Virus record (IMG/VR): IMGVR_UViG_3300037484_000317
Direction: 5' to 3' (one strand)
DNA: 64,000 nt
Source of the DNA: a virus
Taxonomy: Duplodnaviria > Heunggongvirae > Uroviricota > Caudoviricetes
Shown here: positions 5,216 through 58,093 of the stretch, one piece after another
Layout of the letters: each line of letters begins with the position of its first letter
Position numbering within the stretch: the first letter of the stretch is position 1
Translations under genes and position numbers: made by a program
The notes under the pieces: model-generated
What the model was told of the DNA's origin: nothing
The model's database searches: none
What the model saw: only the letters and a program-made list of their open reading frames with translations

Positions 5216-5550
5216 TCGGCGGCAGAGACATCATCTATCCTCATGGACTGTCGGGTCAGGCACTCGACTTTGTGCAGCGATGCGTTCGTGGTGTCTGGAA
5301 CAAATCTGTGGTGGAGATGGATAGCATGCATCCTACCATCTCGGTCTTCTTCTACAAGGACCATCAGGCTTTCCAGTCTTGGAAAGAGGATGGGGCTACA
5401 CCCGAAAATGACGACACGATGATCCATCTCCTCTCGGAGTCAGGGGAGACTACGTTCGTCGTGGCCTCAACTCAGCCAGAGACTCGAAAGATGGTTGAGG
5501 ACATCATTCTTGGTCTTGACGTTAACTTCACGCATGGACCATTCGCGTGA
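5212..5550 (+). CDS. hypothetical protein
   Basis: 112-aa ORF. Confidence 0.5.
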   Translation: MIGGRDIIYPHGLSGQALDFVQRCVRGVWNKSVVEMDSMHPTISVFFYKDHQAFQSWKEDGATPENDDTMIHLLSESGETTFVVASTQPETRKMVEDIILGLDVNFTHGPFA

Positions 5551-6176
5551 GGCAAAGCATTGCCATCCTTTCGCCAGAGAAACTTCGTTATACCATTGGA
5601 TGGAACAATGCTCCAGACCTCTTCATTGCGGGGCGTGTAGACGGGGATTGGCTCATCCTGGTTTACGGGGATCTTCATTCAATCTGTGTACCTCTCTCCG
5701 CATTCCACCAAGTAGCGTCCGGCCCCAAGCCTGATCCCTCTCGTCTTAGCATCGAGGACTACGGGCAGACCGTGTGCCTTGGGGAGTATGAGATTGCAGC
5801 AGACTGGTTACGTGCTCGTCCCCGGGTTCAGGTTCATGGGTATTTGTCCATTCTCACAGGCTACGAGTTCGATAGGGGTAAGAGGATACTAATGGATCCA
5901 AGAAACGGTCGAATCTACTCTGAGGATGAAATCAAGAGTCTCCCAGCGAAGGGGGCACGCGAACGGCTTGTAGAAATCCCGCAGTCCGCTCTGGCAACCA
6001 TCGAAGAGATGGGTCCAGATGCCCGTAAAGCGTGGGCACGCGAACGACAGACATGCTCATGTGGTCACCGTCGGGTTGAGCACTCGAAGCACGGTAGTGG
6101 ACGATGCCGTGGAAGAGGCATTCAAGTCGGTCGCTGTATCTGTCAGAAGATGCGGCTCGTTAAGGTGGCCTCATGA
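5547..6176 (+). CDS. hypothetical protein with C-terminal Cys/His cluster
   Basis: 209-aa ORF ending …CSCGHRRVEHSKHGSGRCRGRGIQVGRCIC. Confidence 0.5.
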   Translation: MRQSIAILSPEKLRYTIGWNNAPDLFIAGRVDGDWLILVYGDLHSICVPLSAFHQVASGPKPDPSRLSIEDYGQTVCLGEYEIAADWLRARPRVQVHGYLSILTGYEFDRGKRILMDPRNGRIYSEDEIKSLPAKGARERLVEIPQSALATIEEMGPDARKAWARERQTCSCGHRRVEHSKHGSGRCRGRGIQVGRCICQKMRLVKVAS

Positions 6177-6382
6177 TCTCAACGCCTATCCATGATGGAC
6201 GCCTCGGGGTGCATTGCGGGTCCGATGATTCGGATCTCGCGCACTGGACCATCACGGGCGAAGTGACCTGCGTAGAGTGCCATAAGGCAGCGAGGGTTGC
6301 ATCGGATCGGGCATGGGCAAGGATAGACGCTCATGAGGCAGCGTTCGAGGCACGTATGGAAGATCTGGCCAAGGGCACATAA
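6173..6382 (+). CDS. hypothetical protein
   Basis: 69-aa ORF with Cys/His pairs. Confidence 0.4.
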   Translation: MISTPIHDGRLGVHCGSDDSDLAHWTITGEVTCVECHKAARVASDRAWARIDAHEAAFEARMEDLAKGT

Positions 6383-6687
6383 TGGGCTGGGCAGACACGT
6401 ACATCGCTGGACTGAAGCGCGGGGAGACTGTGAGCTTCCGTCCACGGGGCGGCAGCATGACTGGCAAGATCAACAGCGGCGACCTGTGCACTGTGGCGCC
6501 CCTGGGAGATACAGTACTGAAAGTCGGAGACATTGTGCTGTGTCAGGTGCATGGCAATCAGTACCTGCACTTGGTGAAGAAGCGTGCCGATGACGAACGA
6601 TACATGATCGGCAACAATCGTGGGGGTGAAAATGGCTGGATTGGACGAGCCAAGATCTTCGGTATCTTGAAGAGCGTTCAGGCTTGA
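6382..6687 (+). CDS. S24 (LexA/UmuD/signal-peptidase-like) peptidase-fold protein
   Basis: RPRGGSMTGKINSGDLCTV resembles the GDSM…GD motif of S24 peptidases, with a downstream KKR candidate catalytic Lys. Confidence 0.45.
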   Translation: MGWADTYIAGLKRGETVSFRPRGGSMTGKINSGDLCTVAPLGDTVLKVGDIVLCQVHGNQYLHLVKKRADDERYMIGNNRGGENGWIGRAKIFGILKSVQA

Positions 6688-6741
6688 TATAAGGAAAGGT
6701 ACATCTGCCTCTCAATACTGGGTCTATCCATCATTGATGGT

Positions 6742-7581
6742 ATGAACCACGAGAAGGTATACCAAGAATTGATGAGGACACGTCAGAGTTTGGACCGTAA
6801 GAGCCGAAAGGACGGGTCTTTGGAGCGACACCATATCCGTCCGAAGTGCCTTGGAGGCACTAACGCGAAGGAGAACCTTGTCTACCTGACTCCCCGGGAG
6901 CATTTCCTGGCACACCTGCTGTTGGTCCGATTCCTGACGGGAAAGCCAAAAGCACAAATGTCTTTTGCTCTCCTTATGATGACTCGGAACAACCCGAATC
7001 AAACGAGGATTGTGTCCTCTTGGCAATATGCGGTTGTAAAGAAGGCCATCAGCGAGAATTGCCGTGGATCAAATCATCCGGCGTTTGGTTTAAGGAAAAC
7101 TGAGGCTCAGAAGAAAGTGATCTCAGAGCGGATGTCTGGACCAAACAATCCCCATTACGGACAGATATCCTGGAATCATGGGTTGACGGCGGATACTTCT
7201 CCGATCCTTCGACGGGCCGGAGAGAAGTACAGCCTTTATGTCAAGGAGAACCCTAGTGTTTTGCAAGGACGTTCCCATACGGAAGAGACTCGACAGAAAA
7301 TCAGTAGAGGCCATCTTGGGAAAACGAAGAGCGAAGATCATCTCCAGAAAATTTCCCTTGCTTTAAAGGGCAGGAGCCCCACACGAGAAGCTATTGAAAA
7401 AAGCGCTTTGCTTCATCGCGGGGTCTCGCAAGAGACTCTTGTTTGTCCAAAGTGTTTGAAATCCGGTGGGACAGTCGCGATGAGACGGTGGCATTTCGAG
7501 TTCTGTGGGATTCGAAAGCCCATCTCGGAAGAAACGCGTGAAAAGATGCGTAGGGCGGCAAGGCTTCGGGTTCGAGCGTAA
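6742..7581 (+). CDS. HNH homing endonuclease with NUMOD3-type repeats
   Basis: HHIRPKCLGGTNAKENLVYLTPREHFLAH is an HNH motif. Repeated NHPAFGLRKTEAQKK / GPNNPHYGQ NUMOD-like modules follow. The gene is low-GC relative to its neighbours and freestanding. Confidence 0.75.
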   Translation: MNHEKVYQELMRTRQSLDRKSRKDGSLERHHIRPKCLGGTNAKENLVYLTPREHFLAHLLLVRFLTGKPKAQMSFALLMMTRNNPNQTRIVSSWQYAVVKKAISENCRGSNHPAFGLRKTEAQKKVISERMSGPNNPHYGQISWNHGLTADTSPILRRAGEKYSLYVKENPSVLQGRSHTEETRQKISRGHLGKTKSEDHLQKISLALKGRSPTREAIEKSALLHRGVSQETLVCPKCLKSGGTVAMRRWHFEFCGIRKPISEETREKMRRAARLRVRA

Positions 7582-7588
7582 GAGGCAC

Positions 7589-8020
7589 ATGGAACAGCGA
7601 CGTGTCAAACAAGTGCTAGTAGTCCGCAAAGATTTGCACATGAGATCCGGAAAAATCGCGGCGCAGGCGAGTCACGCTTCGATGAAAGTCCTACTCGACT
7701 TGATGGTTCAATCTGGAACGAGTTTTTTCCCGTTTGCACCATATGCAACAACGAGATCATTGACTCTCTCCCTGGAAGACGGCACACCCCTTCAACTCTG
7801 GCTGGATGGGTCCTTCACGAAGATCGTCGTCTCTGTCAACAGTGAGAGTGAGTTGGATGCTGTCTACCAAAAGGCGCAAGCAGCAGGGCTCTTGTCGGCT
7901 CTCATCGTGGACAACGGATACACGGAGTTTCATGGCGTGCCCACCAAGACCGTAGTGGCAATCGGTCCGGCGTGGGCCGATGAAATCGACCTGATCACTG
8001 GGGGCTTACCTCTCCTGTGA
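7589..8020 (+). CDS. pth2: peptidyl-tRNA hydrolase, PTH2 family
   Basis: KQVLVVRKDLHMRSGKIAAQASHAS matches the PTH2 signature (VLVVRTDL…GKIAAQCSHA). Starts at an internal ATG 8 nt after the HNH stop. Confidence 0.7.
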   Translation: MEQRRVKQVLVVRKDLHMRSGKIAAQASHASMKVLLDLMVQSGTSFFPFAPYATTRSLTLSLEDGTPLQLWLDGSFTKIVVSVNSESELDAVYQKAQAAGLLSALIVDNGYTEFHGVPTKTVVAIGPAWADEIDLITGGLPLL

Positions 8021-8199
8021 CAGACGATATCAGACCTCGTGGCACTGTAGAGGTGCGGTGCTCCGCTCCTGGATGCGAATGGCGCTTCTGGGTTGAAACG
8101 CTTGATCCACGTCTCCCTAACGGCCCCTTCTATTGTTCCGAGGGGTGCGATCCACCGGGGTCACCTCCGCGCCCACGCCTCCAGAAATCTCCCGTCTGA
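8017..8199 (+). CDS. small Cys-rich protein
   Basis: 60-aa ORF with CSAPGCEW…YCSEGCD. Confidence 0.35.
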   Translation: MTDDIRPRGTVEVRCSAPGCEWRFWVETLDPRLPNGPFYCSEGCDPPGSPPRPRLQKSPV

Positions 8200-8213
8200 G
8201 GCGTAAGGGGTAC

Positions 8214-8657
8214 ATGGACTACACGAAGATTTATGGGGGTTGGAACTCCCTGCCCGATTGCCGTATCCGTTTGGATTTGGGTGACGGTGTGGAGCACTTG
8301 TGGGGGAAGATGCTTCCGGACGGTACGTTCGGGATCAACAACATGCCCCTCGATGCCTCCTACCAGTGGCAGGATATCGTCAGCTCGCAAGAGCTTCGAA
8401 ACAGTGCCGCGCTCATCCACCGACGTTGGAAGTGCAAGACGTACTTCTGCTTCAAAGAGGATCCCAAGGGGGACCAGACACTGCGGCAGACTATCGCAGA
8501 GACCCTTCAGGCAAGAGGGCTCTACCCGGGGTTTTGGACCACAGGTGTGGGCTATGCCCTCTTCAAGGAAGACCTTGGGGAAGAGGCTAGTCAGAAAGTC
8601 ATCTCGGATGCCCTGGATGGTAAGGCTGAGTTGGTTGCGAATCCAAATCTGTCGTGA
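8214..8657 (+). CDS. hypothetical protein
   Basis: Internal ATG, preceded by TGAGGCGTAAGGGGTAC. Confidence 0.5.
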   Translation: MDYTKIYGGWNSLPDCRIRLDLGDGVEHLWGKMLPDGTFGINNMPLDASYQWQDIVSSQELRNSAALIHRRWKCKTYFCFKEDPKGDQTLRQTIAETLQARGLYPGFWTTGVGYALFKEDLGEEASQKVISDALDGKAELVANPNLS

Positions 8658-8708
8658 CCCAGGCGGTGAGAATGCATTTCACGGCTGTGGTTCCCGTGAC
8701 ATTCTGAC

Positions 8709-9332
8709 CTATTTGTATCTCCACAAGTAACCACCGGCCCTAGGTCTATTGCCCTTGCAACATGCGCAAATGTGCGCCCTAAGCGAGCCTGTTGCCTTTT
8801 CAGCAGCTAGGGCTGAATCGTAAACGGCTAATACGACACCTGTAGGGTCCAAACATTCCACAGGCTTCCGTTTCACCAAACTTAACTTTTCGCATGTGGC
8901 AGGACTCTTTACCCTACCAATTTGGTCTCTCCTTTTTCGTTCCCTCACATCTTTCCGTTGATTCAGCCTCACTGCCGAGGCACTCTTTCTGCGGCGGGTT
9001 TCCTCGGAGTCCTGTTTCTTCTGCCCCCCATAACCACCTGCACTCTTATTGTACAGTCGGCACCCAAGGGCCTTAAATCTAAGGATGTGATCCCGCTCCC
9101 CAATGAAAGCTGCCGCCTCGCTTTCATAAGGGTACTTTTCCACAAGGTGAAAATTCTGTGGCCCGTATTTCCGGATGGCCTGGTACAAATGGCTGTTTCG
9201 GAGATTGTTTCTGGAGCTGAAAGCATGCATCCTATGTTGTCTGAGGCGCTCATCTGGATTGTTTGATTTCCCAACATAGTAAGTTGGGACCAGAGCGGCC
9301 TTGTTTTGAAGCACGTAAGCGAAAGATTCCAT
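8709..9332 (-). CDS. GIY-YIG homing endonuclease
   Basis: AYVLQNK…YYVGKSNNPDERLRQH…Y is a GIY-YIG motif. The gene is on the opposite strand in a plus block, low-GC, with a Lys/Arg-rich DNA-binding tail. Confidence 0.75.
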   Translation of the reverse strand: MESFAYVLQNKAALVPTYYVGKSNNPDERLRQHRMHAFSSRNNLRNSHLYQAIRKYGPQNFHLVEKYPYESEAAAFIGERDHILRFKALGCRLYNKSAGGYGGQKKQDSEETRRRKSASAVRLNQRKDVRERKRRDQIGRVKSPATCEKLSLVKRKPVECLDPTGVVLAVYDSALAAEKATGSLRAHICACCKGNRPRAGGYLWRYK

Positions 9333-9340
9333 ACCCTACT

Positions 9341-10249
9341 ATGACACAACGTACGATTGTCATCGGTGATATTCACGGATGCCTAGAAGAATTCGAAGAG
9401 CTGCTTAGAACCATCGAGTTCAAGCAGTGTACAGACAGGCTCGTGCTCTTGGGGGACCTCGTAGACCGGGGACCGGACCCTGTGGGCGTCGTTCGTCGTG
9501 CTCGTGAGCTGGGTGCGGAGTCCGTGCTCGGGAACCACGAGGAACGTCACCTTCGTTTTCGAAGGCACGAGGCGAAGAAGTACACGAACCCCAGCTACAA
9601 GAACCCGATGAAGCCATTCGTTGGGGAACGCCTTGTGGAGCACCACGCGTACTCCGCAGAGGACTTCGCTTGGATGGCCGCCCTCCCCATCACCATCCGC
9701 CTACCGGGGAACTGGATCGCGGTGCACGCTGGATTTGAGGCGGCCTACCCACTGGAGAAGCAGCGGCCGGAGAAGATGCTCCGGGTCCGGTACGTGGACG
9801 CCACCGGGAAAATGAAGGCCATCTCCAGCGACACGGAGAAGCCTGAGGGCACGGTCCAGTGGGCCACGGTCTACAGGGAGCCTGTGCACGTCGTTTATGG
9901 GCACATGGCCCTGAGCATGGAGAAGCCGGTCTTCACGAGCGTAGCCCTGCCCAGGGCTCCGGAAACCTGGCGGGATGAAAACCTCAGGGAAGCCCCACTC
10001 TCCCTCTCAGCACCCGAGGGTCTATCGCTTTCCATCCTTCATGCGGAAGACAGGAGAGTCCTAGCAGAGATTGGGGCTACCCTCTCGCTGCTCGCCCCTG
10101 ACGAGACCTGGCTACGCTGTGCCCTGGACACCGCTTGCTGCTTTGGGGGGTCACTCTCGGCGCTCATCCTGCCTGACAGGGGTGAGCCCACGACGGCAAG
10201 CGTCAAATCCAAGGCCACCTACGCCCAGGTTTGGGCGGGGGATGACTGA
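9341..10249 (+). CDS. PPP-family Ser/Thr protein phosphatase (lambda-PP/ApaH-like metallophosphoesterase)
   Basis: IVIGDIHGC…LVLLGDLVDRGPD…GNHE are the canonical GDxHG/GDxVDRG/GNHE motifs. Confidence 0.7.
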   Translation: MTQRTIVIGDIHGCLEEFEELLRTIEFKQCTDRLVLLGDLVDRGPDPVGVVRRARELGAESVLGNHEERHLRFRRHEAKKYTNPSYKNPMKPFVGERLVEHHAYSAEDFAWMAALPITIRLPGNWIAVHAGFEAAYPLEKQRPEKMLRVRYVDATGKMKAISSDTEKPEGTVQWATVYREPVHVVYGHMALSMEKPVFTSVALPRAPETWRDENLREAPLSLSAPEGLSLSILHAEDRRVLAEIGATLSLLAPDETWLRCALDTACCFGGSLSALILPDRGEPTTASVKSKATYAQVWAGDD

Positions 10250-10427
10250 CGGGGGCCTGAGGCGGAGCCGATTCCAACTTTGTGGCCCGCTTCAGTAGGT
10301 CACTAGCATGCCCGAGAGATATACAACGGGCCATGCAGTCACGTTGGTGCTGCCAGATCTCGATGATGGCGTGTGCTTCACGACGTAGTTTGTTTGCCGC
10401 TGGGTTGCGGTCGGTTCGGTAAGGCAA
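10203..10427 (-). CDS. hypothetical small protein
   Basis: 74-aa ORF with a 4-nt overlap to the upstream minus gene. Its 3-prime end overlaps the convergent phosphatase gene. Confidence 0.25.
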   Translation of the reverse strand: MPYRTDRNPAANKLRREAHAIIEIWQHQRDCMARCISLGHASDLLKRATKLESAPPQAPVSHPPPKPGRRWPWI

Positions 10428-10429
10428 AA

Positions 10430-10753
10430 TCAGTCTGGCATGTCGAAAAGCGCCATCTCGGAATCTGTCAGCCTGTACCAGAGCTTGTCCAAGGCGTCTA
10501 GAAGGACGTTCAAAACGTCGGGGTCTTCGTTGTCAGCCGACACTTGAAGGACTCCAAGGTACGCACGAAGATTGGCGCTTTGGGGTGCCCCTGACTTTTC
10601 CAGGAAAGATCTGACGTTACTGACAACAGTTGCCCCGGTCAGTTCAGAACGGTTGACTGCGGCGTCCCGCTGGTTACGGGTGGGATGCGTGTGAACTTTC
10701 CCAGGAAGGCGAAAGCTATCCATAGCTTCTTCGAGGCTCAAAACTTTGTCCAT
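10430..10753 (-). CDS. hypothetical protein
   Basis: 107-aa ORF in the minus block. Confidence 0.5.
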   Translation of the reverse strand: MDKVLSLEEAMDSFRLPGKVHTHPTRNQRDAAVNRSELTGATVVSNVRSFLEKSGAPQSANLRAYLGVLQVSADNEDPDVLNVLLDALDKLWYRLTDSEMALFDMPD

Positions 10754-15772: not shown

Positions 15773-17050
15773 CTACCAGCGACCGATGCTGAGGACGAGA
15801 CCGTTTTGTCCCGCCCACGATTGCACAACGTTCAACTCGGTACCCGTTGCGACCCGATTACATGCGCCCCGGACCTGAACGATGGACCGGGAGGCGTTCT
15901 GGACTTCAATGGTCAACACCCGCTCTGCACCCTTGCTCACCTGGTGAACTACGCTCCAGATGGAGACAGCACCGCTGGTGATTCGAGAGGCGTAGGACAC
16001 CACACAGTGGTGCATGGCGCGGCCCTCATCCATGAGGGCCTTTCCCGTGAGGATCTCGTCGATGAACCACTTGTTCTCACCACCCCGATTTGGGTTGGAG
16101 AAATCGAAATTCCCGGGCTTGATCCCCGAGTGCTTGAAGGTAACCCTCTGATCGAATCCGAAAGATACCCGACCGGTGCGCGGGTCCGCAACCTGATTGG
16201 CCCGGACGCGTTGAGCGGCCTGCATACCAGCGTGCCACTCTTTCATGGATCGCAACAGAGCAAGCGCAGAACGCCCCTTCATGGTGAATGTGATGTCCTC
16301 ATCACGCTTGAACCGGATGTAGTCCGTCAGGGGTCCAATCTGGTTCCGTTCCAGCATGGGATTTGCTGCGCACCAGTGAAGCACGGTGGCCCAGAAGGTC
16401 TCCTGTTCGACTGTCCCGATGGTACGGCCTGGTTCTGTCTCCATCCAAGCCTGGAGCAGTCTGCGGTCGCCCCCCATGGCGTTGACTTGCGTGCGCCGGA
16501 TGCCTTCGAGTACGCTTTCGTCGCTGGTCGTCTTTGTCAGGAGGTCGTGGCACATCGCCTTGGTCATCGGAACGGGCAGTTCGCCCTTCTTGACCAGCTT
16601 GTAGAGGCTCTCACCGGCAGCCACCTGTACCACGATGGGGATCAGGGTGGGTGGCCGGCGCTCGAAGGGAAAGAACCCACTCCAGAGGAAGGCCGGTGTG
16701 CGGTACCGCATCAGAAGGTGCTCGCAGAGGGAGCGGAAGAGCATGTCGCGCCCCTTCCCCCGTGGCTTCCAGGATTCTAGGGGACGAACGAAGGGTTCGT
16801 GTCTCAGAACGTGCTCCACCGCCGGGAGATACTCCGGAAGGATGAGTCGAGGCGCCCTCTTGGCAATGAGCGCCAGGGGCCCAACGCGCCCCACCTCAAG
16901 GCCCACGGGCCGACGGGAGAGGCTGGCTTGGATACGAGCTTCCTGGTCCGCTTGGAGAGTCGCCGCCTTCAGCTTGGACTCCGCCTGAACCCGTCGCCGA
17001 TCAGCGGCGGCACGCACCTCAGCCAGCTTCTGTTTGTCCCTCTTGTCCAT
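15773..17050 (-). CDS. hypothetical protein (C-terminal His/Cys region; possibly PcfJ-like, low certainty)
   Basis: 425-aa ORF. The C-terminus contains MHHCVVSYASRITSGAVSIWSV…VQVRGACNR. Confidence 0.5.
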   Translation of the reverse strand: MDKRDKQKLAEVRAAADRRRVQAESKLKAATLQADQEARIQASLSRRPVGLEVGRVGPLALIAKRAPRLILPEYLPAVEHVLRHEPFVRPLESWKPRGKGRDMLFRSLCEHLLMRYRTPAFLWSGFFPFERRPPTLIPIVVQVAAGESLYKLVKKGELPVPMTKAMCHDLLTKTTSDESVLEGIRRTQVNAMGGDRRLLQAWMETEPGRTIGTVEQETFWATVLHWCAANPMLERNQIGPLTDYIRFKRDEDITFTMKGRSALALLRSMKEWHAGMQAAQRVRANQVADPRTGRVSFGFDQRVTFKHSGIKPGNFDFSNPNRGGENKWFIDEILTGKALMDEGRAMHHCVVSYASRITSGAVSIWSVVHQVSKGAERVLTIEVQNASRSIVQVRGACNRVATGTELNVVQSWAGQNGLVLSIGRW

Positions 17051-21327: not shown

Positions 21328-21545
21328 TGCTCACCCGTAGCTGCTGGAACACCATCCACGAAGTCGGCCACTGCGTCTTGCGCCTTGTGCAGCAGATTCA
21401 CAGCGTCAGTGAGCCGTGTATCGCAACCCATCTCTTCGACGGCGACCATTGCCTCACGGATGGCTAGCTCTGCGGGGACCATTTTGTCGAGGCGAATGCG
21501 GCGTGGAAATGAGTCAGTCATCGGTTTCTCCCGAAGATAGTCCAA
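21324..21545 (-). CDS. hypothetical protein
   Basis: 73-aa ORF. Confidence 0.4.
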   Translation of the reverse strand: MDYLREKPMTDSFPRRIRLDKMVPAELAIREAMVAVEEMGCDTRLTDAVNLLHKAQDAVADFVDGVPAATGEQ

Positions 21546-22731
21546 GAGACGAACGCTGCTCCCCCGTCAGCTCGGTGACGTCCAGCACACTCCACACCGC
21601 AGCTGGGCGCACCGTTCCGTTCTCGTCAGTGGTCGCTCCTCCCAGCCCCGCCACGAACCGCATCTCAAACTCGGCGCCGAGATAGTGCCACTTTACCGGA
21701 ACTACACTCAGCTGCGACTGGAAGTCGCAGAGCGTAGGACCATCTCCCATACCCACCAATCGATTGCGATTGAACTTGCCGCCGTCCTGAAGCGCTGCCT
21801 TGGCAATGCTCGCCATCATGGGGTGGAAGCTCTCTTCCTCCAGGAACTGGTTGCGGCATAGGTACTTGCCCTCTCCAAGGAATGGATAGAACACGTTGAT
21901 CCAACCGCTGATGTACGGCCCCCCACTCCCGCCCCCTCTAATGTATAGTGAGCGCCAGAACGCGATGTCTGGCTTGCCCTGTGCCGTTTCGACGATCTTC
22001 GTGCAGATCATCTCCAGCGGGTCGATCCACCAGCCGATGTTGCCGAACTCGCGGAGATTCCCCACACGCGTGAGCACAGACTGCCAGTCTTCGACCGTTC
22101 CTTCGAGGGTGATCTCCGGAAACCCACAGCACGTTCGCATGCCGTAGTCGAAATACCTGCTCATCGCGTCCATGAGCACGACCTCACTCGCCGCCCGCTC
22201 GACAACCCCTGTCGTCGTGAAGTCACAGACGAGCAGATCCTTCTTCTTGCCGATGTGCTTCTCGATCTGCTCACTGAACTGACCGAAAAGCCGCGTCCAG
22301 TCGTTGTCTGGAGAGTTCTTCACGAAGTCGTCCACCTGGACTTCTAGGTACTGCTTGCCCTCGAACGACACGAACTGCTTACGTAGTTCCTCCGCGTTCA
22401 TCTTCACGTGCTTTGCGAAGCCGTGAGCGATTGCTAACCAGAGATGATCTGGCGATAGTGATAGCCCCCGATGCTCGTTGTACGCAACGCCCACCGTGCG
22501 CACAAGCGCACTGCTCGTCGTATGCTCGATAAGCTGCACGTCCGAAGCACCATCGACCTGCGCACCGAACGCTGCACTCTTCTCCCCCCAACGCGAGGCC
22601 TCGCGCGAAAACTGCGCACCTACCACCGCACTCCATGGCCGTACAGTGGACCGCACCTCTTTAGTCACCTCGTCGACCTTGAATGTGAAGCTCATCGCGT
22701 CTCCATGTTGTTCATTGGTGGATTGCCGCAA
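21514..22731 (-). CDS. hypothetical protein (conserved-looking, 405 aa)
   Basis: Long ORF containing GGSGGPYISGWINVFYPF. Co-directional with, and 22 nt downstream of, the 749-aa ORF. Confidence 0.55.
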   Translation of the reverse strand: MRQSTNEQHGDAMSFTFKVDEVTKEVRSTVRPWSAVVGAQFSREASRWGEKSAAFGAQVDGASDVQLIEHTTSSALVRTVGVAYNEHRGLSLSPDHLWLAIAHGFAKHVKMNAEELRKQFVSFEGKQYLEVQVDDFVKNSPDNDWTRLFGQFSEQIEKHIGKKKDLLVCDFTTTGVVERAASEVVLMDAMSRYFDYGMRTCCGFPEITLEGTVEDWQSVLTRVGNLREFGNIGWWIDPLEMICTKIVETAQGKPDIAFWRSLYIRGGGSGGPYISGWINVFYPFLGEGKYLCRNQFLEEESFHPMMASIAKAALQDGGKFNRNRLVGMGDGPTLCDFQSQLSVVPVKWHYLGAEFEMRFVAGLGGATTDENGTVRPAAVWSVLDVTELTGEQRSSLGLSSGETDD

Positions 22732-45227: not shown

Positions 45228-46751
45228 ATGAAATTCGACTTCCTCACCCCTGCTGATAAGCCAGCCTGCTATCATGTAGCCAACCCACAGGGTTTGGACG
45301 TCAAGTTGTTTGCGAATCCCAACGTCCTCCTAGAGAAGGATGGGTTCGCGCAGCTCTTTGACTTCCTGGACGTGGCCCGTGCCGTTTCCGACGTGCGGGA
45401 GGCGGAAGTCAAGGGCAGGTTGTCCTACTTTAGGGATGCCCCTGCTGGCATAGACAAGGTCGTTCTGACTCCGGATTTCCACAAGGGGTCTTTCGTTCCT
45501 GTGGGTGTTGTCCTTCGGGCCAATCACTTCGTCATCCCACAGGCCATCGGAAACGACATCTGCTGCGGGATGCGTCTCTTGGTGACGGACATTCCGGTAG
45601 AGGCACTGGATCCCTACTGGCCTGACATCCAGAAGCGGCTACGTGCGATCTTCTTTGCAGGCGAGCGGAATATCCCAATGTCTCCCCGCCAGCGAGAGGC
45701 TGTACTTCGTGAGGGTTTGCCTGGTCTCTTGCGGTTTGCCGAAGACAACGAGAAGACCGGCATTTGGACTCGGTTTGACCGTGCTTCTGAAATGGCCAAC
45801 GTGTCCAGGGCGCACAACAATGGTCAGGTAGAGACTACTCGTCTCTTTGGATTCGAAAAGTTCATCCGCTCTTCCGGAAAGGTGGATGGACGAGATCCTC
45901 AGATCGGATGTGTGGGAGGTGGAAACCACTTTGTGGAGCTGCAACGCATTGATGCTCTCTACTCGTCTCAAGCGCACGAGTGGGGATTGAGCAAGGGATG
46001 TCTGGCTATCATGGTCCACTCCGGGTCTGTGGCGCTGGGTCATACCGTTGGTGGCTACTTCATGGGACGCGCTAAGGAGCTTTTCCCGACGACCGTGAAG
46101 GCTCCGGCAGAAGGCTTCTACCCCATCCCCACAGATGGCCCACTGGCAGATGAGGGACGTTTCTACCTAGACGGGATGGGCAATGCCGCGAACTTCGCTT
46201 TTGCCAACCGCCTCTTTCTTGGGTTGATGGCAGTTCGCGCAATCGAAGAGGCCACAGGGCGCACGGTTTCATCTCGGCTAGTGTATGATGCACCCCACAA
46301 TCTCGTGTTCCACACCGGGAAGAGCATGGTCCATCGGAAGGGTGCCACACCTGCGTACGGCCCTGATGAGAAGGACTACAACGGTCGCCCGGTAATCATT
46401 CCCGGGTCCATGGGGGCGGCTAGTTATCTTCTAGCAGGTCTCGGAAATGAGAACGCTCTTTCGAGCGCATGTCATGGAGCAGGACGGGCTTTGTCGAGAA
46501 GCAAGGCTTCTCATGTGGCTAAGGATGTCTACGAACGTGAGACTGGTGGGCTGCGAATCGTGGGTCCCGTAGACTTCAGGGACCCAGCTCTTTCTCGCCG
46601 ACGGGACATCCTAGATAACTACGAGAAGAGAATGATGGAGGAAGCGCCGTACGCGTATAAGGCTGTGGAGCCTGTAGTTGACTCTGTTGTCGATGCTGAG
46701 ATTGCAACGAGGGTCGCTCGACTCTGGCCCATTTGCACGGTGAAGGGGTAA
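45228..46751 (+). CDS. rtcB: RtcB RNA ligase (long, archaeal/eukaryal-type, 507 aa)
   Basis: GGGNHFVELQ metal-binding motif and the C-terminal HGAGR motif carrying the GMP-attachment His. Confidence 0.8.
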   Translation: MKFDFLTPADKPACYHVANPQGLDVKLFANPNVLLEKDGFAQLFDFLDVARAVSDVREAEVKGRLSYFRDAPAGIDKVVLTPDFHKGSFVPVGVVLRANHFVIPQAIGNDICCGMRLLVTDIPVEALDPYWPDIQKRLRAIFFAGERNIPMSPRQREAVLREGLPGLLRFAEDNEKTGIWTRFDRASEMANVSRAHNNGQVETTRLFGFEKFIRSSGKVDGRDPQIGCVGGGNHFVELQRIDALYSSQAHEWGLSKGCLAIMVHSGSVALGHTVGGYFMGRAKELFPTTVKAPAEGFYPIPTDGPLADEGRFYLDGMGNAANFAFANRLFLGLMAVRAIEEATGRTVSSRLVYDAPHNLVFHTGKSMVHRKGATPAYGPDEKDYNGRPVIIPGSMGAASYLLAGLGNENALSSACHGAGRALSRSKASHVAKDVYERETGGLRIVGPVDFRDPALSRRRDILDNYEKRMMEEAPYAYKAVEPVVDSVVDAEIATRVARLWPICTVKG

Positions 46752-52870: not shown

Positions 52871-54040
52871 ATGGCACTCTCAGAAATCAGCTCGTCAAAC
52901 GTCCCCGTCAAGATCTGGTCGCCCCTCAAGGACGTCGAGTCGGCAGCGTTGACGCAGCTTCGTAATACGGCCTCTCTTCCGTGGGTCGCACACCACGTAG
53001 CGGTTATGCCCGATGTCCATTTCGGAATCGGAGCGACGGTAGGAAGCGTTGTCGCCATGCGCGGGGCTGTTTCCCCGGCTTGCGTGGGTGTCGACATTGG
53101 CTGCGGAATGGCTGCAATCCGCACCAGTCTCCGCTCGCATGACCTTCCTCACTCCCTGCTTGCACTGCGCACGGACATCGAGACCGCAGTGCCTGTCGCA
53201 CACAACGGGCACAGCAAGGGAATGAGCCCTTATGCCCGCAAGAGTGAGCTGTGGGCAGAGTTCAAGGACTTGCACCCCAAGGTTCAGGACTTGCTCTCCA
53301 AGGCGCAGATTCAGCTTGGCACTCTGGGGGGTGGCAATCACTTCATCGAGATTTGCATTGATACTGAGAAGCGCGTGTGGGTGATGCTGCACTCGGGCTC
53401 GCGGAACATCGGCAAGTCCTTGGCTGAGATCCACATCGCGGTGGCCAAGAAGCTTGAGCACAACCAACCCCTGGTGGACCGAGACCTTGCGGTGTTTCTT
53501 GCGGGCACAAAGGAGATGCAGGACTATCGGCGAGATCTGTACTTCGCACAACGCTACGCGGCTGAGAACCGACAGGTGATGATCTCGCTGGTCAAGGACG
53601 TGATGGTCAAGCACTTCCCGCAGGTCACCTACGACCCGGTGATTGCGTGCCATCATAACTACGTCTCTGAAGAGACGCACTTTGGAGACGATCTGTTCGT
53701 GACTCGCAAGGGTGCCATCTCGGCCCGCAAGGGTGAGCTTGGGATCATTCCTGGCAGCATGGGCACCAAGTCCTACATCGTGAGTGGGCTTGGTTGTGAA
53801 GAGAGCTTCTGCTCGGCTTCGCATGGTGCTGGGCGCCGCATGTCACGAGGTGACGCAAAGCGGCGCTTCACACGAGATGACCTCGAAGAGCAGACGGCTG
53901 GTGTCGAGTGCCGCAAGGACGGGGGCGTGATCGACGAAATCCCAGCTTGTTACAAAGATATCGATCAGGTCATGGCGAATCAAGGCGATCTCGTGGCGAT
54001 CGTACACGAACTGAAACAAGTCCTGTGCGTTAAGGGATGA
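52871..54040 (+). CDS. rtcB: RtcB RNA ligase (short bacterial-type, 389 aa)
   Basis: GGGNHFIEICID and C-terminal SHGAGRRMSR. Confidence 0.8.
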   Translation: MALSEISSSNVPVKIWSPLKDVESAALTQLRNTASLPWVAHHVAVMPDVHFGIGATVGSVVAMRGAVSPACVGVDIGCGMAAIRTSLRSHDLPHSLLALRTDIETAVPVAHNGHSKGMSPYARKSELWAEFKDLHPKVQDLLSKAQIQLGTLGGGNHFIEICIDTEKRVWVMLHSGSRNIGKSLAEIHIAVAKKLEHNQPLVDRDLAVFLAGTKEMQDYRRDLYFAQRYAAENRQVMISLVKDVMVKHFPQVTYDPVIACHHNYVSEETHFGDDLFVTRKGAISARKGELGIIPGSMGTKSYIVSGLGCEESFCSASHGAGRRMSRGDAKRRFTRDDLEEQTAGVECRKDGGVIDEIPACYKDIDQVMANQGDLVAIVHELKQVLCVKG

Positions 54041-55122
54041 AGATGGATCAGACTACAGCAGTCGAGCGTTTGCGGAAGGCAAAACGTCCTGAAGACATCT
54101 TCGGGACGCTTGCGGAAGGCCCACTTCCGACGCGCTTGCACGCACTGAAGCACCGCTTCGATAGTCTTCTACTGCATGTGCATCCGGACCGTAATCCTGA
54201 CTTGCCGGATGCGGGACTACACATCACTCGCCTTATGGCTCTCCGAAAGGAAGCAGAGAACCTGTTGCAGACGGGGGCTTACGGCAAGGTGCGCAAGGCC
54301 GTGGTCGAAGCCGTGCTCAAATCTCGTACGGGCGTGTACAAGGTGCACAAGGAATATCGGGTGGGGGAGGTTGCAGACTTGTTCCTCGGCGAGACGGACA
54401 AGGGGCAGAAGTGCCTGTTGAAGGTGGTTCGGCACCCGAGTGAAAACGACCTACTTGATTTCGAAGCACGGACACTTGCGGAGCTGCACAAGCAGACTGG
54501 GGACAAGGCGAAGACCTTCCAGAAGTACCTTCCGAAGCTTCTCGACAGCTTTCCGCTAATCGAGGGGGGTAAACACCGGAGGGTGAATGTCTTGGACGTG
54601 GCTGAGGACTACGTCTCTCTCGCGGAGATTCACGCCGCATACCCTGACGGCATTGACCCCCGTGATGCGGCCTGGATGATTCGACGAGTCTTCGAGGTGC
54701 TCGGCTGGATTCACGAACTGGGGTACGTCCACGGTGCGGTGCTTCCAGAGCATGTGCTGGTTCACCCGACAGGACACGGAGCACGCCTAGTGGGCTGGTC
54801 CTATGCGGTCAAGACAGGACAACGGCTCTTGGCAGTCAGTGCTCTTCGCAAGGACATGTACCCGCCGTCTGTCATGAGCCGTAAGCCCGCCACACCAGTG
54901 CTTGACGTCCAGCTCGTTCGTGAGTGCGCAACTATCTTGCTGTCCGACAAGAACGGTTTGCTGCGGGCCGATGTACCGAAGGCACTCTCGGCTTTCCTGA
55001 CCAAGTGTAAGAGTGGAAAAGTCCTGGACGGTTGGGATGCCTACCGTGAGTACAACGAAGTTCTGAAGAAGTGTTATGGCAAGCGGGAGTATCGCGCGTT
55101 TGCGATGCCGACGAGTGTCTGA
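54037..55122 (+). CDS. J-domain (DnaJ-like) protein fused to a degenerate protein-kinase-like domain (pseudokinase)
   Basis: J-domain EDIFGTL…LKHRFDSLLLHVHPDRNPD…LHITRLMALRKEAENLL with the HPD motif. The kinase fold is QKCLLKVV (VAIK-like), …FEARTLAELH (alphaC), IHELGYVHGAVLPEHVLV (HRDLKPEN with D to A and K to V), and HGARLVGWSYAV (DFG replaced by VGW). Confidence 0.55.
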   Translation: MKMDQTTAVERLRKAKRPEDIFGTLAEGPLPTRLHALKHRFDSLLLHVHPDRNPDLPDAGLHITRLMALRKEAENLLQTGAYGKVRKAVVEAVLKSRTGVYKVHKEYRVGEVADLFLGETDKGQKCLLKVVRHPSENDLLDFEARTLAELHKQTGDKAKTFQKYLPKLLDSFPLIEGGKHRRVNVLDVAEDYVSLAEIHAAYPDGIDPRDAAWMIRRVFEVLGWIHELGYVHGAVLPEHVLVHPTGHGARLVGWSYAVKTGQRLLAVSALRKDMYPPSVMSRKPATPVLDVQLVRECATILLSDKNGLLRADVPKALSAFLTKCKSGKVLDGWDAYREYNEVLKKCYGKREYRAFAMPTSV

Positions 55123-55136
55123 GAAGGAGAGTCAAA

Positions 55137-56108
55137 ATGGGATATTCAAGCTGGTCGGGCGACGCATACGATCACATCAGCAGGCCACGTGCGAAGATGG
55201 ACTACGGCACTGCGAGGGCAACAGTCTTCTCGTCTCGACTCAAGTCGAGTCTCGACCCGAAGGGTGTGAAGGTTCGAGAGTCGCGAGACAGCGCCGACCA
55301 TCCGGAGAGCAACGCGATCGGCGTGCTGTTCGATGTGACGGGCAGCATGGGGCAGACGCCGTATGAGTTCGCCCAGAAGAAGTTGGGTGGCCTGATGAAG
55401 ATGCTCGTCGACAAGGGTGTGATCGGCCACCCCCAGGTACTCTTCGGCGCGATCGGCGACTCCTACTCGGACACAACGCCGTTCCAGGTCGGGCAGTTCG
55501 AGTCGGGCGTCGAGATGGACACATGTCTCACGGACATCTTCATCGAGGGCGGCGGCGGTGGCCAAAACAAGGAGAGCTACGGGCTGGGGCACTACTTCTT
55601 CGCACGTCACACGTCGATCGACTGCTCTGAGAAGCGTGGAAAGAAGGGCTACCTCTTCACGGTCGGTGACGAGCTGGTCTGGCCGACAATCACGGCCGCC
55701 GAAGCCGAGCGGGTCTTCGGGGACACGATCGAAGATACAACGGTGGCTGACCTCATCCATGAGTGTGAGAGCCGCTACAACGTGTTCCACATCGTCGTGG
55801 GGACGTCCACCGGTAATCGGCCTGAGATCCTCGCAGGATGGAAGGCGCTGCTCGGCGAGCGTGCACTCAAGCTCGATGACCCGGACAACATCTGCGAGCT
55901 GATTGCAGCGACCATAGGCCTCTGCGAGGGGCACAGCCTCGATGTGGTGAATGGCGTTCTGCGGGACTCCGGAGCCAGCGCAGGCGCCGTGAAGTCGGTT
56001 GGGGCTGCCATCGTTCCGCTGCGGGACTCCCTGGCGCGTTCGGCCGTTGGTTCGATCCTCGGGAACCTCCCAGCAAGCGCTGCACCCAGCGGCACCATCC
56101 GCCTCTGA
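55137..56108 (+). CDS. von Willebrand factor A (vWA) domain protein with MIDAS
   Basis: VLFDVTGSMG (DxTGS MIDAS) plus downstream T and D residues; a GAAGGAGAG RBS precedes the internal ATG. Confidence 0.6.
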   Translation: MGYSSWSGDAYDHISRPRAKMDYGTARATVFSSRLKSSLDPKGVKVRESRDSADHPESNAIGVLFDVTGSMGQTPYEFAQKKLGGLMKMLVDKGVIGHPQVLFGAIGDSYSDTTPFQVGQFESGVEMDTCLTDIFIEGGGGGQNKESYGLGHYFFARHTSIDCSEKRGKKGYLFTVGDELVWPTITAAEAERVFGDTIEDTTVADLIHECESRYNVFHIVVGTSTGNRPEILAGWKALLGERALKLDDPDNICELIAATIGLCEGHSLDVVNGVLRDSGASAGAVKSVGAAIVPLRDSLARSAVGSILGNLPASAAPSGTIRL

Positions 56109-56111
56109 GCC

Positions 56112-57374
56112 ATGTCCACCCACATCGTCACTGATCTGGGTTTTGGTGACGGTGGGAAGGGCACCATAGTCGATGCGGATGCGCGTCGCTGTTCGAGTCC
56201 ACCACTTGTGGTGAGGTACAACGGCGGCGCGCAAGCTGGACACAACGTGCATACAGCGGACGGGCGGCACCATACATTCTCACAGTTTGGGGCCGCCACG
56301 TTTGTACCGGGCTCTAGGACGTTGCTTTCGAAGCACTTCATCCTGCACCCGGGTGGGCTCATGGTTGAGAACGAGCACCTTGTCTCGCTTGGCGTTACTG
56401 ACGCCCTCAAGCGTCTCAGTATCGACGCACGAGCGCTGGTCATCACGCCGTATCATCAAGCCGCCAACCGTCTACGGGAAGCTGCTCGTGGTTCGGCTCG
56501 GCATGGCACTTGTGGTTTAGGGATTGGGGAAACGGTCGCCGATTCACTAGAGCACAGGGACGAAGCTTTGCGTGTGGCAGATCTTCTGGACCCCGCAACC
56601 CTTCGGCGAAAACTTTCCTCCGCGTGTGAGAGGATGCACCAGCAGATGCCATTGCCGTGGTCCGTGCGAGCGAACTTTGAGCTATGGCGTACGGCAGATC
56701 TGCTTACGAAGATCGGAAAGTTTCTTCATGTCATCTCCGCAAGTGATGCAGATTCTCAAATCAGAGAGTCAGAGCATGTGATTTTCGAGGGGGCACAGGG
56801 CGTGCTCCTCGATGAGTGGCTTGGGTTCCATCCGCACACAACGTGGAGCACCACGACCACGGCAAACGCTGACGCCATGATTGCGGAGACTGGCCGCACC
56901 GGGCCCGTAGAGCGAATCGGCGTCGTTCGTGCGTACGCAACCCGCCATGGTCAGGGCCCGTTCCCCACGGAGGATGCAGCACTCACAGAGCAGCTCCGCG
57001 ATACCCACAACACGGACACTGGACCTCAGGGCAGCTTCCGTGTCGGTTGGTTTGATGTGCCCCTCACCAAGTACGCATTGAGTGCGTGCCCTGGGATCAC
57101 GTCTCTCGCTGTGACGTGTCTCGATCGTCTTGCAAATGTTCCCGAGTGGTCTGTATGCGAGGCGTACGAAGGGGGAGATCGTCTAGTAGTGAACCACGGG
57201 CATGACCTCGCGTACCAGGAGCAACTGACGCACTACCTCATGGGGTGCACGCCCGTGCTGCGGGGGGTACCCAGTGATGTCCAAGGGTACGTGCGCGAGA
57301 TCGAGCAGTGTACAGGTCTGCCGGTCTCTGTCATTTCGCTGGGCCCCACAGCAGAAGACAAGCGCTGGATTTAG
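56112..57374 (+). CDS. adenylosuccinate synthetase family protein (PurA-like; candidate PurZ)
   Basis: P-loop GDGGKGTIVD (canonical GDEGKGK), VVRYNGGAQAGHNV, TCGLGIGET, FEGAQGVLLD, AYATRHGQGPFPTE, and SLGPTAEDK are collinear with PurA along the whole length. Confidence 0.75.
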   Translation: MSTHIVTDLGFGDGGKGTIVDADARRCSSPPLVVRYNGGAQAGHNVHTADGRHHTFSQFGAATFVPGSRTLLSKHFILHPGGLMVENEHLVSLGVTDALKRLSIDARALVITPYHQAANRLREAARGSARHGTCGLGIGETVADSLEHRDEALRVADLLDPATLRRKLSSACERMHQQMPLPWSVRANFELWRTADLLTKIGKFLHVISASDADSQIRESEHVIFEGAQGVLLDEWLGFHPHTTWSTTTTANADAMIAETGRTGPVERIGVVRAYATRHGQGPFPTEDAALTEQLRDTHNTDTGPQGSFRVGWFDVPLTKYALSACPGITSLAVTCLDRLANVPEWSVCEAYEGGDRLVVNHGHDLAYQEQLTHYLMGCTPVLRGVPSDVQGYVREIEQCTGLPVSVISLGPTAEDKRWI

Positions 57375-57817: not shown

Positions 57818-58093
57818 ATGACTGCATGGGTCGAAAAAAGTCCGGGTCAGAACGCTGCTGTGATCGACGAAGACAGCGGTCTAGGTGACTCCGCAGTACT
57901 TGTGGGGCTGGACAGACTTGATTGGATTCGGCTTCCTGAGAAGCTGGGTGGGATGCAGGTACGTGTCCTTTCCAGAGAACAGACGTTGTGCCCATTCCAC
58001 AAGAATCATGATTGCGCCCATTACCACCTAGACAGTGGATTCTCTGTGGCTGAGTGTGACCAGTTCTATTGGTACAGGAAGGTCACCCCGTGA
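57818..58093 (+). CDS. hypothetical small protein
   Basis: ATG after the upstream TGA. CPFHKNHDCAHYH. Confidence 0.4.
   Translation: MTAWVEKSPGQNAAVIDEDSGLGDSAVLVGLDRLDWIRLPEKLGGMQVRVLSREQTLCPFHKNHDCAHYHLDSGFSVAECDQFYWYRKVTP

Follow-up and report, generated by a model that had tools for sequence, protein, structure and literature searches.

Introduction

In bacteriophage T4, the seg and mob genes spread by 'intronless homing', a process in which the cut is made in a neighbouring conserved gene, away from the endonuclease gene itself, and the flanking markers are co-converted (PMC2988022; for MobE, PMC2790892). A comparable arrangement is predicted here for positions 6742-9332 of a 64,000-nucleotide (nt) stretch of DNA from a virus of the class Caudoviricetes (IMG/VR record IMGVR_UViG_3300037484_000317), which as a whole is referred to as the window. 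A gene for a PTH2-type peptidyl-tRNA hydrolase (pth2) is preceded there by an HNH-NUMOD3 endonuclease gene and followed, on the opposite strand, by a GIY-YIG endonuclease gene, which in turn adjoins the gene of a calcineurin-like metallophosphatase. As in the case of T4 SegF, SegG and MobE, both endonuclease genes are freestanding, lie outside any intron or intein and are located next to conserved genes (PMC2988022, PMC2790892). MobE additionally resembles the HNH protein of the window in that it combines an HNH domain with a distinct C-terminal region (PMC2988022). As in the T4-type systems, the cut would fall inside the neighbouring gene, distant from the insertion point, and co-conversion would give rise to mosaic alleles. 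Unlike in these systems, the putative targets are pth2 and a metallophosphatase gene, homing is a prediction from sequence, and none of the solved homing endonucleases could be matched to the HNH protein at the sequence level. No paper was found that links a homing endonuclease to pth2 or that describes pth2 or a metallophosphatase gene as a target of such enzymes. At a related locus, L033, the junction lies inside the open reading frame (ORF) of the target, whose 5' end is duplicated; an in-ORF junction with such a duplication is not known from the T4 examples.

Two further systems are instructive. The GIY-YIG protein of the window is built like I-TevI and I-BmoI, with an N-terminal catalytic domain (Y, Y-x-G, R, E and N residues) and a C-terminal DNA-binding module; in contrast to these enzymes, it is freestanding instead of intron-encoded, and its putative target is a metallophosphatase gene and not the gene for thymidylate synthase. 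In the mitochondrial atp6 gene of the fungus Allomyces macrogynus, Paquin and colleagues are reported to have described in 1994 an endonuclease element, ORF360, which carries a replacement piece of its target gene. L033 is similar, since a gene portion that seems to have travelled with the endonuclease has displaced the resident portion, which was left behind as a truncated relic. L033 differs from atp6/ORF360 in that the 5' and not the 3' end is replaced, the genome is that of a phage and not of a mitochondrion, and the endonuclease ORF is separate and not fused in frame; the window itself differs even more, as its relic is at best decayed.

PTH2 proteins are well documented in jumbo phages (PMC7824862). 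Iyer et al. (2021) grouped them with RNA repair and already hypothesised that they rescue ribosomes or tRNAs under host attack (PMC7824862). The window is similar to these phages in that an archaeo-eukaryotic-type PTH2 occurs in a large phage together with RtcB ligases and other RNA-repair enzymes. In the literature, its function is framed as ribosome rescue that follows tRNA cleavage. An anti-defence or ribosome-rescue role of the window PTH2 is thus a hypothesis that has already been published (PMC7824862), and the function of PTH2 is hypothetical in both cases; a homing endonuclease associated with PTH2, as seen in the window, is not reported there (PMC7824862).

An HNH endonuclease lineage at the 5' end of pth2

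The window probably carries two independent freestanding homing endonuclease genes, each of which is located at the 5' end of the conserved gene that it would target. The HNH gene is considered first. A search of 5.8 billion clustered proteins yielded 93 homologues of the HNH protein, among which four, besides its own entry, are full-length and more than 45% identical. At an identity of at least 44%, a clade of six members is obtained, which consists of the window protein, P0002 (locus L031), P0003 (L037), P0004 (L035), P0005 (L033) and the protein encoded at the IMG/VR locus L038; the identities to the window protein range from 44 to 59%. The HNH gene abuts the 5' end of pth2 in all six members, three of which are co-directional and three divergent. 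The genes encoding P0002 (59% identity; L031) and P0005 (50%; L033/L034) are located directly upstream of pth2 in the same orientation, as is the one in the window. Those for P0004 (46%; L035/L036) and P0003 (L037) are divergent from pth2, the start codon of which lies at a distance of about 100 nt, and the HNH gene of L038 (44%) is divergent and lies 52 nt from the PTH2 start. A control set was assembled from 101 loci with more distant HNH-NUMOD3 homologues, taken from IMG/VR and GTDB genomes, plus P0007; PTH2 is adjacent to the HNH-NUMOD3 gene in none of these 102 loci. One control contig, from a jumbo phage, has PTH2 at a distance of 5 kb from its HNH-NUMOD3 gene, and the gene that follows that of P0007, which is 39% identical to the HNH protein, is unrelated and encodes more than 333 amino acids (aa). 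Pairwise tblastx comparisons of the five longer HNH-PTH2 loci revealed that only the HNH and PTH2 genes are common to them and that the flanks are unrelated. Since nothing else is shared around the pair, the association is not a by-product of conserved synteny. The interpretation given in a first-pass annotation of this DNA is supported in part by these counts, in that the HNH gene is specifically tied to pth2.

It could be argued that homing endonuclease genes land anywhere in jumbo phage genomes and that two of them merely happen to lie near pth2. In a stretch of about 110 genes, two random genes are estimated to fall within four genes of each other about 8% of the time, and no empty site was found among close relatives. 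However, all six members of the clade adjoin a gene that only 33 of 50,697 phage records contain, a number that agrees with the earlier description of PTH2 as rare in phages, compared to none of the 102 distant loci; moreover, the pairing of a GIY-YIG gene with a phosphatase gene recurs in an unrelated context. Chance adjacency is therefore extremely improbable and is effectively refuted for each link between an endonuclease gene and its partner. The closeness of the HNH-pth2 pair to the GIY-YIG-phosphatase pair, on the other hand, may be due to chance.

Several features of the HNH protein agree with a homing endonuclease. It matches Pfam NUMOD3 at 1.9e-11 (44.1 bits versus a gathering score of 20.4) and PHROG 655, 'homing endonuclease', at 3.6e-41. 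The residues E28, H30, H31, N45, H54 and H58 of its E-HH..N..H motif are invariant across eight homologues, and a zinc-finger-like motif at the C-terminus, CPxCxKxGG..AMxRWHFxxC, is kept among the homologues. No PDB homologue was detected at E<=1. A tblastn search with the NUMOD3 region also produced a match within the window at 16832-17026 (+), antisense to a PcfJ-like gene (15773-17050), with 34% identity over 70 aa and an E-value of 3e-4; this match could have arisen by chance from low complexity, or it could be what remains of an old endonuclease gene.

At the level of the gene family, the HNH gene is polymorphic: it is present beside pth2 in six loci and absent from about thirty. No homologue of the window HNH is located beside PTH2 in 30 loci that were collected by PTH2-based searches from IMG/VR, metagenomes and the annotated jumbo phages Xoo-sp13, XacN1 and RsoM2USA. 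The nearest detectable relatives of the window phage, which were traced through a 147-aa ORF downstream of pth2, are L158, L159/L160 and L161. The homologues of this ORF in L158-L161 are 47-57% identical and have no homing endonuclease gene adjacent to them. These relatives share an M10 peptidase, PTH2 (55-57% identity), an RNA-ligase-like protein (encoded at 58069-58689 in the window) and the 147-aa protein with the window, differ from it in gene order, and carry PTH2 directly after a SIMPL-domain gene and without an endonuclease gene. In addition, other, unrelated endonuclease genes were observed a few kb from homologous modules, namely an HNH_3 gene in L158 (4542-5045), a NUMOD3-like segment in L157 (3038-3262) and a distant GIY-YIG gene in L152 (6806-7429); homologous modules seem to attract homing endonuclease genes in general. 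A single weak tblastn match (E=0.006) for a GIY-YIG gene beside PTH2 in L018 was set aside, and nothing rests on it. A conserved linkage of PTH2 with a phosphoesterase, as the order PTH2, hypothetical gene, phosphoesterase in Xoo-sp13 and XacN1 might indicate, was likewise dropped, because the neighbours in these phages have no detectable similarity to the window genes.

Alternatively, the HNH protein could have been domesticated as a functional partner of PTH2, for instance as a regulator or as half of a two-gene module, and would then be vertically inherited and no longer mobile. Six loci have the two genes side by side, the HNH ORFs have remained intact at 44-59% identity, their guanine-cytosine (GC) content is adjusted to each host (0.31-0.62), and the packing is tight, with a gap of 7 nt or with overlapping stop and start codons. 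In contrast to what is expected of an operon, however, the orientation switches between co-directional and divergent, and about 30 PTH2 loci, including those of the nearest relatives, lack the HNH gene. The combination of an HNH domain, NUMOD3 and a zinc-finger-like tail is the architecture of phage homing endonucleases, and the relic at L033, which is described below, has the appearance of a recombination scar. Domestication is therefore considered unlikely, although it is the strongest of the competitors to homing discussed here.

If the HNH gene is a homing endonuclease gene, pth2 could be its target or its cargo. The HNH-linked PTH2 alleles do not form a clade in the PTH2 tree; they are scattered among unlinked ones and are 38-50% identical to each other. 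The window PTH2 is 63% identical to the allele of L001, which has no HNH gene, and 44-49% identical to the other HNH-linked alleles. The scatter and the low mutual identity of the linked alleles suggest that pth2 is a homing target and not cargo.

A recombination scar and a candidate cleavage region in pth2

The window PTH2 is a predicted peptidyl-tRNA hydrolase with intact catalytic residues. It matches the Pfam family PTH2 (PF01981) at 1.4e-30 with 106.3 bits (gathering score 23) over profile positions 1-115 of 115 and aligns to six solved archaeal and human Pth2 structures, with a value of 9.7e-17 for 2zv3. In the alignment with 2zv3 and 1rzw, GKIAAQ pairs with GKMVAQ and IVDNGYTEF with IRDAGHTQL, so that the lysine of the GK motif and the aspartate and threonine of D-x-G-x-T are kept; catalytic roles have been assigned to these three residues in the literature on the Pth2 protein of S. 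solfataricus. The window protein additionally carries an insertion of approximately 30 residues between its two conserved blocks. In L020, a metagenomic contig of 259 kb, the first approximately 14 residues of PTH2 (9906-10396) are encoded in another frame than the body of the gene, which may be due to a frameshift, a pseudogene or an assembly error.

The most informative locus is L033. Upstream of its HNH gene lies an ORF of 25 codons (MSTIKQVIVVRSDLNMRKGKMVAQY, followed by a stop codon), which is a 5' relic of a canonical PTH2 gene. This ORF and the stop codon of the gene before it overlap; it ends 19 nt short of the start of the HNH gene (ATG at 9971, MDYHRIY...) and breaks exactly after the glutamine of the catalytic GK..AQ motif. 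When scored with a hidden Markov model (HMM) of the N-termini of endonuclease-less PTH2 proteins, the relic reached 48 bits and ranked at the top of all sequences tested, above any full-length HNH-linked PTH2. The complete PTH2 gene located 3' of the HNH gene encodes a different N-terminus with an insertion of eight residues (..IRTHYPDGKGGTFKARTGKLIAQ..). No such duplication exists in PTH2 loci without an HNH gene, and in the divergent loci no relics were seen at the far end of the HNH gene. Most simply, the resident pth2 of L033 would have been broken after the Gln codon of the GK..AQ motif, and the HNH gene would have been copied in together with the 5' region of a foreign pth2 or with a whole foreign gene. 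Judging from L033, part of pth2, at least at the 5' end, can thus travel with the HNH gene. The suggestion that pth2 is mobile can be retained in this restricted form; its status as cargo finds no support in the distribution of the alleles.

The eight-residue insertion is not restricted to HNH-linked genes. The PTH2 alleles of L001, L011 and L012, which have no HNH gene beside them, contain this insertion (YPDGKGGFFKPR), which they have in common with the HNH-linked alleles of L031 and L033. They may have lost the endonuclease gene and kept the co-converted, possibly immune 5' segment.

The break of the L033 relic falls in the most conserved stretch of pth2, which encodes the catalytic lysine. 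At this site, ..MRKGK.. is read in 17 of the 25 distinct endonuclease-less alleles and in none of the five distinct HNH-linked alleles, which have RSGK (window), RHGK, RTGK, RTGK and RLGK instead. Fisher's test gave 0.016 on earlier counts (14/22 versus 0/5) and a hypergeometric calculation by hand gave p of approximately 0.01 on the updated ones, where both p values ignore the relatedness of the alleles. Furthermore, if PTH2 is split at the AQ motif, its N- and C-terminal parts have discordant nearest neighbours. The N-terminal part of the L033 protein is 86% identical to that of L001, which lacks an endonuclease gene, but for its C-terminal part no identity exceeds 50%; in the window protein, the N-terminal part has its closest match in L003 (90%) and the C-terminal part in L001 (62%). 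Although the N-terminal parts compared are short, this discordance is suggestive of co-conversion tracts that end at the AQ motif. A target in this stretch also agrees with the scatter of the HNH-linked alleles in the PTH2 tree and with their mutual identities of only 38-50%, in contrast to the 44-59% by which their HNH proteins match that of the window. The recognition and cleavage site of the HNH enzyme is therefore likely to be located in the pth2 stretch that encodes ..MRKGKxxAQxxHAS...

Based on these data, the following course of events is proposed for an HNH lineage that would be specialised on PTH2-type peptidyl-tRNA hydrolase genes and that is presumed to be active and still mobile. 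During co-infection, the HNH enzyme would cut or nick pth2 alleles without an endonuclease gene, probably within the ..MRKGKxxAQxxHAS.. stretch. Recombinational repair from the endonuclease-bearing genome would then copy the HNH gene and the adjoining 5' part of pth2, which would be resistant to cleavage and would render the linked allele immune. Such a process would correspond to intronless homing with co-conversion, and at L033 it would have left the 24 initial codons of the resident pth2 stranded 5' of the HNH gene, which is followed by a complete pth2 with another N-terminus. The GIY-YIG gene would do likewise to the metallophosphatase gene at 9341-10249, and not to pth2.

A more specific model is conceivable, in which the HNH element is a self-contained 'exon-replacement' homing unit that inserts inside the ORF after the Gln codon of GK..AQ and supplies a start codon of its own as well as a copy of the first approximately 25 codons that is immune to cleavage. 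The pth2 gene would be rebuilt without an intron or intein, and the old 5' end would be left behind to act as left homology arm when the unit homes again. In each of the three co-directional loci (window, L031 and L033), the sequence CAATA is found 28-29 nt before the ATG of the HNH gene; it is rare in the window, with a frequency of 1.7e-4 per nt, and in L033 it consists of the last codon of the relic, CAA, plus TA. If the model were true, the ..GCN CAA TA.. junction, which occupies this position in the same three loci, would be the conserved left end of the element. An in-ORF junction with replacement of the 5' end is moderately unusual, and the evidence for this possibility comes mainly from the related locus L033; the model is thus put forward tentatively, and we rather doubt it as it stands.

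A counterpart of the L033 relic might exist in the window. The 33-mer starting at position 6689 (ATAAGGAAAGGTACATCTGCCTCTCAATACTGG, which reads IRKGTSASQYW) has 21 of 33 matches to the end of the L033 relic in an ungapped comparison, and this score is tied for the best among about 128,000 window positions. The position of CAATA, given above, is the second observation in favour of a relic here. The segment at 6689 is possibly the decayed left junction of the HNH element, that is, a relic of pth2, and the match is suggestive only.

The GIY-YIG gene and the metallophosphatase gene

The GIY-YIG protein matches Pfam GIY-YIG at 3.5e-7 (30.8 bits; gathering score 22.6) and PHROG 314, 'homing endonuclease', at 2.5e-21. 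The catalytic residues Y5, Y18, G20, R28, E78 and N94 are invariant (the numbers refer to the query without Met1, and one has to be added for the full protein). A C-terminal module, CCKGNRxSAGGYxWxY, is invariant among the homologues as well and weakly resembles the DNA-binding tail of I-HmuI (E=0.31). No significant match was obtained in the PDB, where the best E-value is 0.27.

Among the 5.8 billion clustered proteins, P0095 is the only close homologue (57% identity). Its gene is located on an 8.6-kb contig (L139) directly upstream of a metallophosphatase gene, which it overlaps by 4 nt in the same orientation, and the encoded phosphatase is 46% identical to that of the window over 193 residues. 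The window phosphatase matches Pfam Metallophos at 4e-16 and PHROG 246, 'NinI-like Ser/Thr phosphatase', at 9.8e-26. The GIY-YIG gene abuts the 5' end of the phosphatase gene in both loci, divergently in the window and co-directionally in L139. Since the only close homologue sits beside a homologous phosphatase gene, the partner of the GIY-YIG gene appears to be the phosphatase gene and not pth2. In IMG/VR, 16 of the 17 loci with homologues of the phosphatase are free of a GIY-YIG gene within 5 kb. Compared to the L139 homologue, the window phosphatase (9341-10249) has an insertion of about 47 residues at residues ~208-260, between the GH motif and the C-terminal block.

The first-pass annotation had suggested that pth2, flanked by the two endonuclease genes, may be part of a mobile cassette. 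In the corresponding explanation, HNH, pth2 and GIY-YIG would form one mobile unit in which pth2 is carried as cargo because it counters host toxins. The three genes do lie within 2.6 kb and comprise the sole two homing endonuclease genes of the 64 kb; the relic in L033 shows that replacement of pth2, or at least of its 5' part, can accompany the HNH gene; and RNA-repair genes (two copies of rtcB and a kinase gene) are located elsewhere in the window. However, none of the other HNH-PTH2 loci contains the GIY-YIG gene, and the close GIY-YIG homologue sits beside a metallophosphatase gene on a contig (8.6 kb) that has neither PTH2 nor any other gene in common with the 6742-9332 region, and the two endonuclease genes occur together at no other locus. 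Between pth2 and the GIY-YIG gene lie two bystander genes, one of which, the 147-aa ORF, is ordinary in related jumbo phages, and the HNH-linked PTH2 alleles form no clade. A single cassette, which is contradicted as far as its GIY-YIG half is concerned, is accordingly regarded as very unlikely, and the bracketing of pth2 by two endonuclease genes is better described by two separate pairs.

Freestanding genes and their composition

The HNH ORF is separate and has its own start and stop codons. An endonuclease encoded by a group I intron in pth2 was rejected as an explanation, because neither a group I intron nor any other Rfam family was detected at E<=1 in the region 6000-10500 and because the PTH2 gene 3' of the HNH gene is complete and has its own N-terminus in the window, L031 and L033. 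The absence of an Rfam intron and the complete genes downstream argue that both endonuclease genes are freestanding, and both look like intact, functional homing endonuclease genes by prediction. Scans for sigma-70 promoters and terminators around the endonuclease genes revealed nothing above the shuffled expectation that would delimit transcription units.

The GC content is 0.504 for the HNH gene and 0.497 for the GIY-YIG gene, compared to 0.559 for the whole window. As had been noted before, both genes are low in GC relative to their neighbours: they are the lowest two among the ORFs of at least 150 aa, and only 0.9% (HNH) and 1.0% (GIY-YIG) of the window stretches of the same size are as low or lower. 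The GC content of the PTH2 gene (0.532, 22nd percentile) is unremarkable. Recent import as the cause of the low values was rejected, since the GC content of the HNH gene follows that of each host genome (0.31 to 0.62 in five loci) and is always 2-6 points lower. This relation is suggestive of a long residence, together with a bias in composition that is intrinsic to the gene.

Observations that weigh against homing at this locus

A number of observations speak against the interpretation of the two genes as homing endonuclease genes that target pth2 and the phosphatase gene. The HNH domain itself matches Pfam HNH only at 0.0065 (17.0 bits), which is below the gathering score of 21.4. The tracking of the host GC content by the HNH gene suggests long residence over recent transfer. 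The six HNH loci form two subclades that match the two orientations, so that there may have been only two independent events, and an old vertical co-inheritance of HNH and pth2 with repeated loss is still conceivable. A close relative with an otherwise identical site, the comparison with which is the classical proof of homing, was not found in the collections searched, in which no PTH2 was more than 63% identical: when IMG/VR and the metagenome collection were scanned with PTH2, the identities reached at most 59-63% and no neighbours were shared, and neither the 147-aa ORF nor the phosphatase produced a match as a single query in the IMG/VR scans. The possible relic in the window was not significant when it was aligned locally with gaps and compared to shuffled sequences (p 0.09-0.22; 0.15 for the segment at 6689-6717), and the HMM of PTH2 N-termini does not detect the segment at 6689. 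The link between GIY-YIG and phosphatase is based on two loci and is much weaker than the one between HNH and pth2; moreover, L152 contains a GIY-YIG gene with 28-34% identity that lies past the phosphatase gene, at a distance of 1.2 kb from the 3' end of the latter. These points notwithstanding, homing by two independent endonuclease genes is still regarded as the probable explanation.

Organization of the window

The features of the locus are listed in Table 1. The three genes of the first-pass annotation (HNH, PTH2 and GIY-YIG) were recovered at the same coordinates by the ORF map, Pfam and PHROGs. The HNH gene is indeed adjacent to pth2; the gap, which had been given as 8 nt, amounts to 7 nt (7582-7588), and the ribosome-binding site of PTH2, AAGAGG, overlaps the HNH stop codon. 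The position of the opposite-strand GIY-YIG gene about 700 bp downstream could be reproduced, as its 3' end is 688 nt past the PTH2 stop codon; the two genes are separated by two small ORFs, the first of which has no family match in Pfam or PHROGs. The start codons of the GIY-YIG and phosphatase genes are divergent and 8 nt apart.

Table 1. Features at and around the HNH-pth2 and GIY-YIG-phosphatase gene pairs (positions in the window).
Feature	Position	Strand	Basis or remark
S24-peptidase-like ORF	6382-6687	+	ORF map
Possible decayed pth2 5' relic / left junction of the HNH element	6689-6717	+	ATAAGGAAAGGTACATCTGCCTCTCAATA, reads IRKGTSASQ; suggestive only
HNH-NUMOD3 homing endonuclease gene (predicted), freestanding, intact, 279 aa	6742-7581	+	Pfam, PHROGs
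PTH2-type peptidyl-tRNA hydrolase gene (predicted), intact, 143 aa	7589-8020 (ATG at 7589)	+	Pfam
Candidate (inferred) recognition and cleavage region in pth2, codons L16-S31	7634-7681	+	LHMRSGKIAAQASHAS; GK lysine and AQxxHAS motif
Cys-rich small ORF, 60 aa, bystander	8017-8199	+	start overlaps PTH2 stop codon
147-aa ORF, function unknown, bystander	8214-8657	+	homologues in distant jumbo-phage relatives
GIY-YIG homing endonuclease gene (predicted), freestanding, intact, 207 aa	8709-9332	-	Pfam, PHROGs
Calcineurin-like metallophosphatase gene, 302 aa	9341-10249	+	Pfam, PHROGs

A Pfam scan of the 112 ORFs of the window identified exactly one NUMOD3 and one GIY-YIG protein, and these sole two homing endonuclease genes of the 64 kb are at most 2.6 kb apart. 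The gene content resembles that of large phages and includes two RtcB ligases, an NAD-dependent DNA ligase, a sliding clamp, a kinase and a PurZ-like adenylosuccinate synthetase; no tRNA genes are present in the window. The HNH, GIY-YIG and 147-aa proteins are each represented by a 100% identical entry from a single JGI metagenome contig of 160,816 bp, which presumably is their source. Using megablast, no DNA match to the region 5500-10500 was obtained in the 50,697 phage records.

Several genes outside the locus deserve mention. The two RtcB-type RNA ligase paralogues are encoded at 45228-46751 (+; 507 aa, divergent) and at 52871-54040 (+; 389 aa, canonical). The gene at 56112-57374 (+) encodes an adenylosuccinate-synthetase-like protein (PHROG 1211, PurZ family, 1e-85; Pfam Adenylsucc_synt, 1.3e-76) and is preceded by a kinase-like gene and a PHROG 2971 gene (54037-56108); the phage may therefore replace adenine with 2-aminoadenine in its DNA (Z-genome). 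Two further genes are noteworthy in a phage context, of which the one at 21514-22731 (-) encodes a DUF4419 protein (3.8e-74) and the one at 15773-17050 (-) a PcfJ-like protein (1.2e-14).

Implications

If the proposed interpretation is correct, two target genes, pth2 and a calcineurin-like phosphatase gene, would be added to the phage genes that are parasitised by freestanding homing endonucleases. The six loci with the HNH gene, the approximately thirty without it and the one unmistakable recombination scar provide a comparative set for the prediction of recognition sites. With respect to annotation, a gene that is flanked by two homing endonuclease genes need not be their cargo, as each of them can belong to a different neighbour. 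Should the in-ORF junction prove to be general, it would be an example of how an endonuclease gene can enter the codons of an essential catalytic motif and need no self-splicing element to do so.

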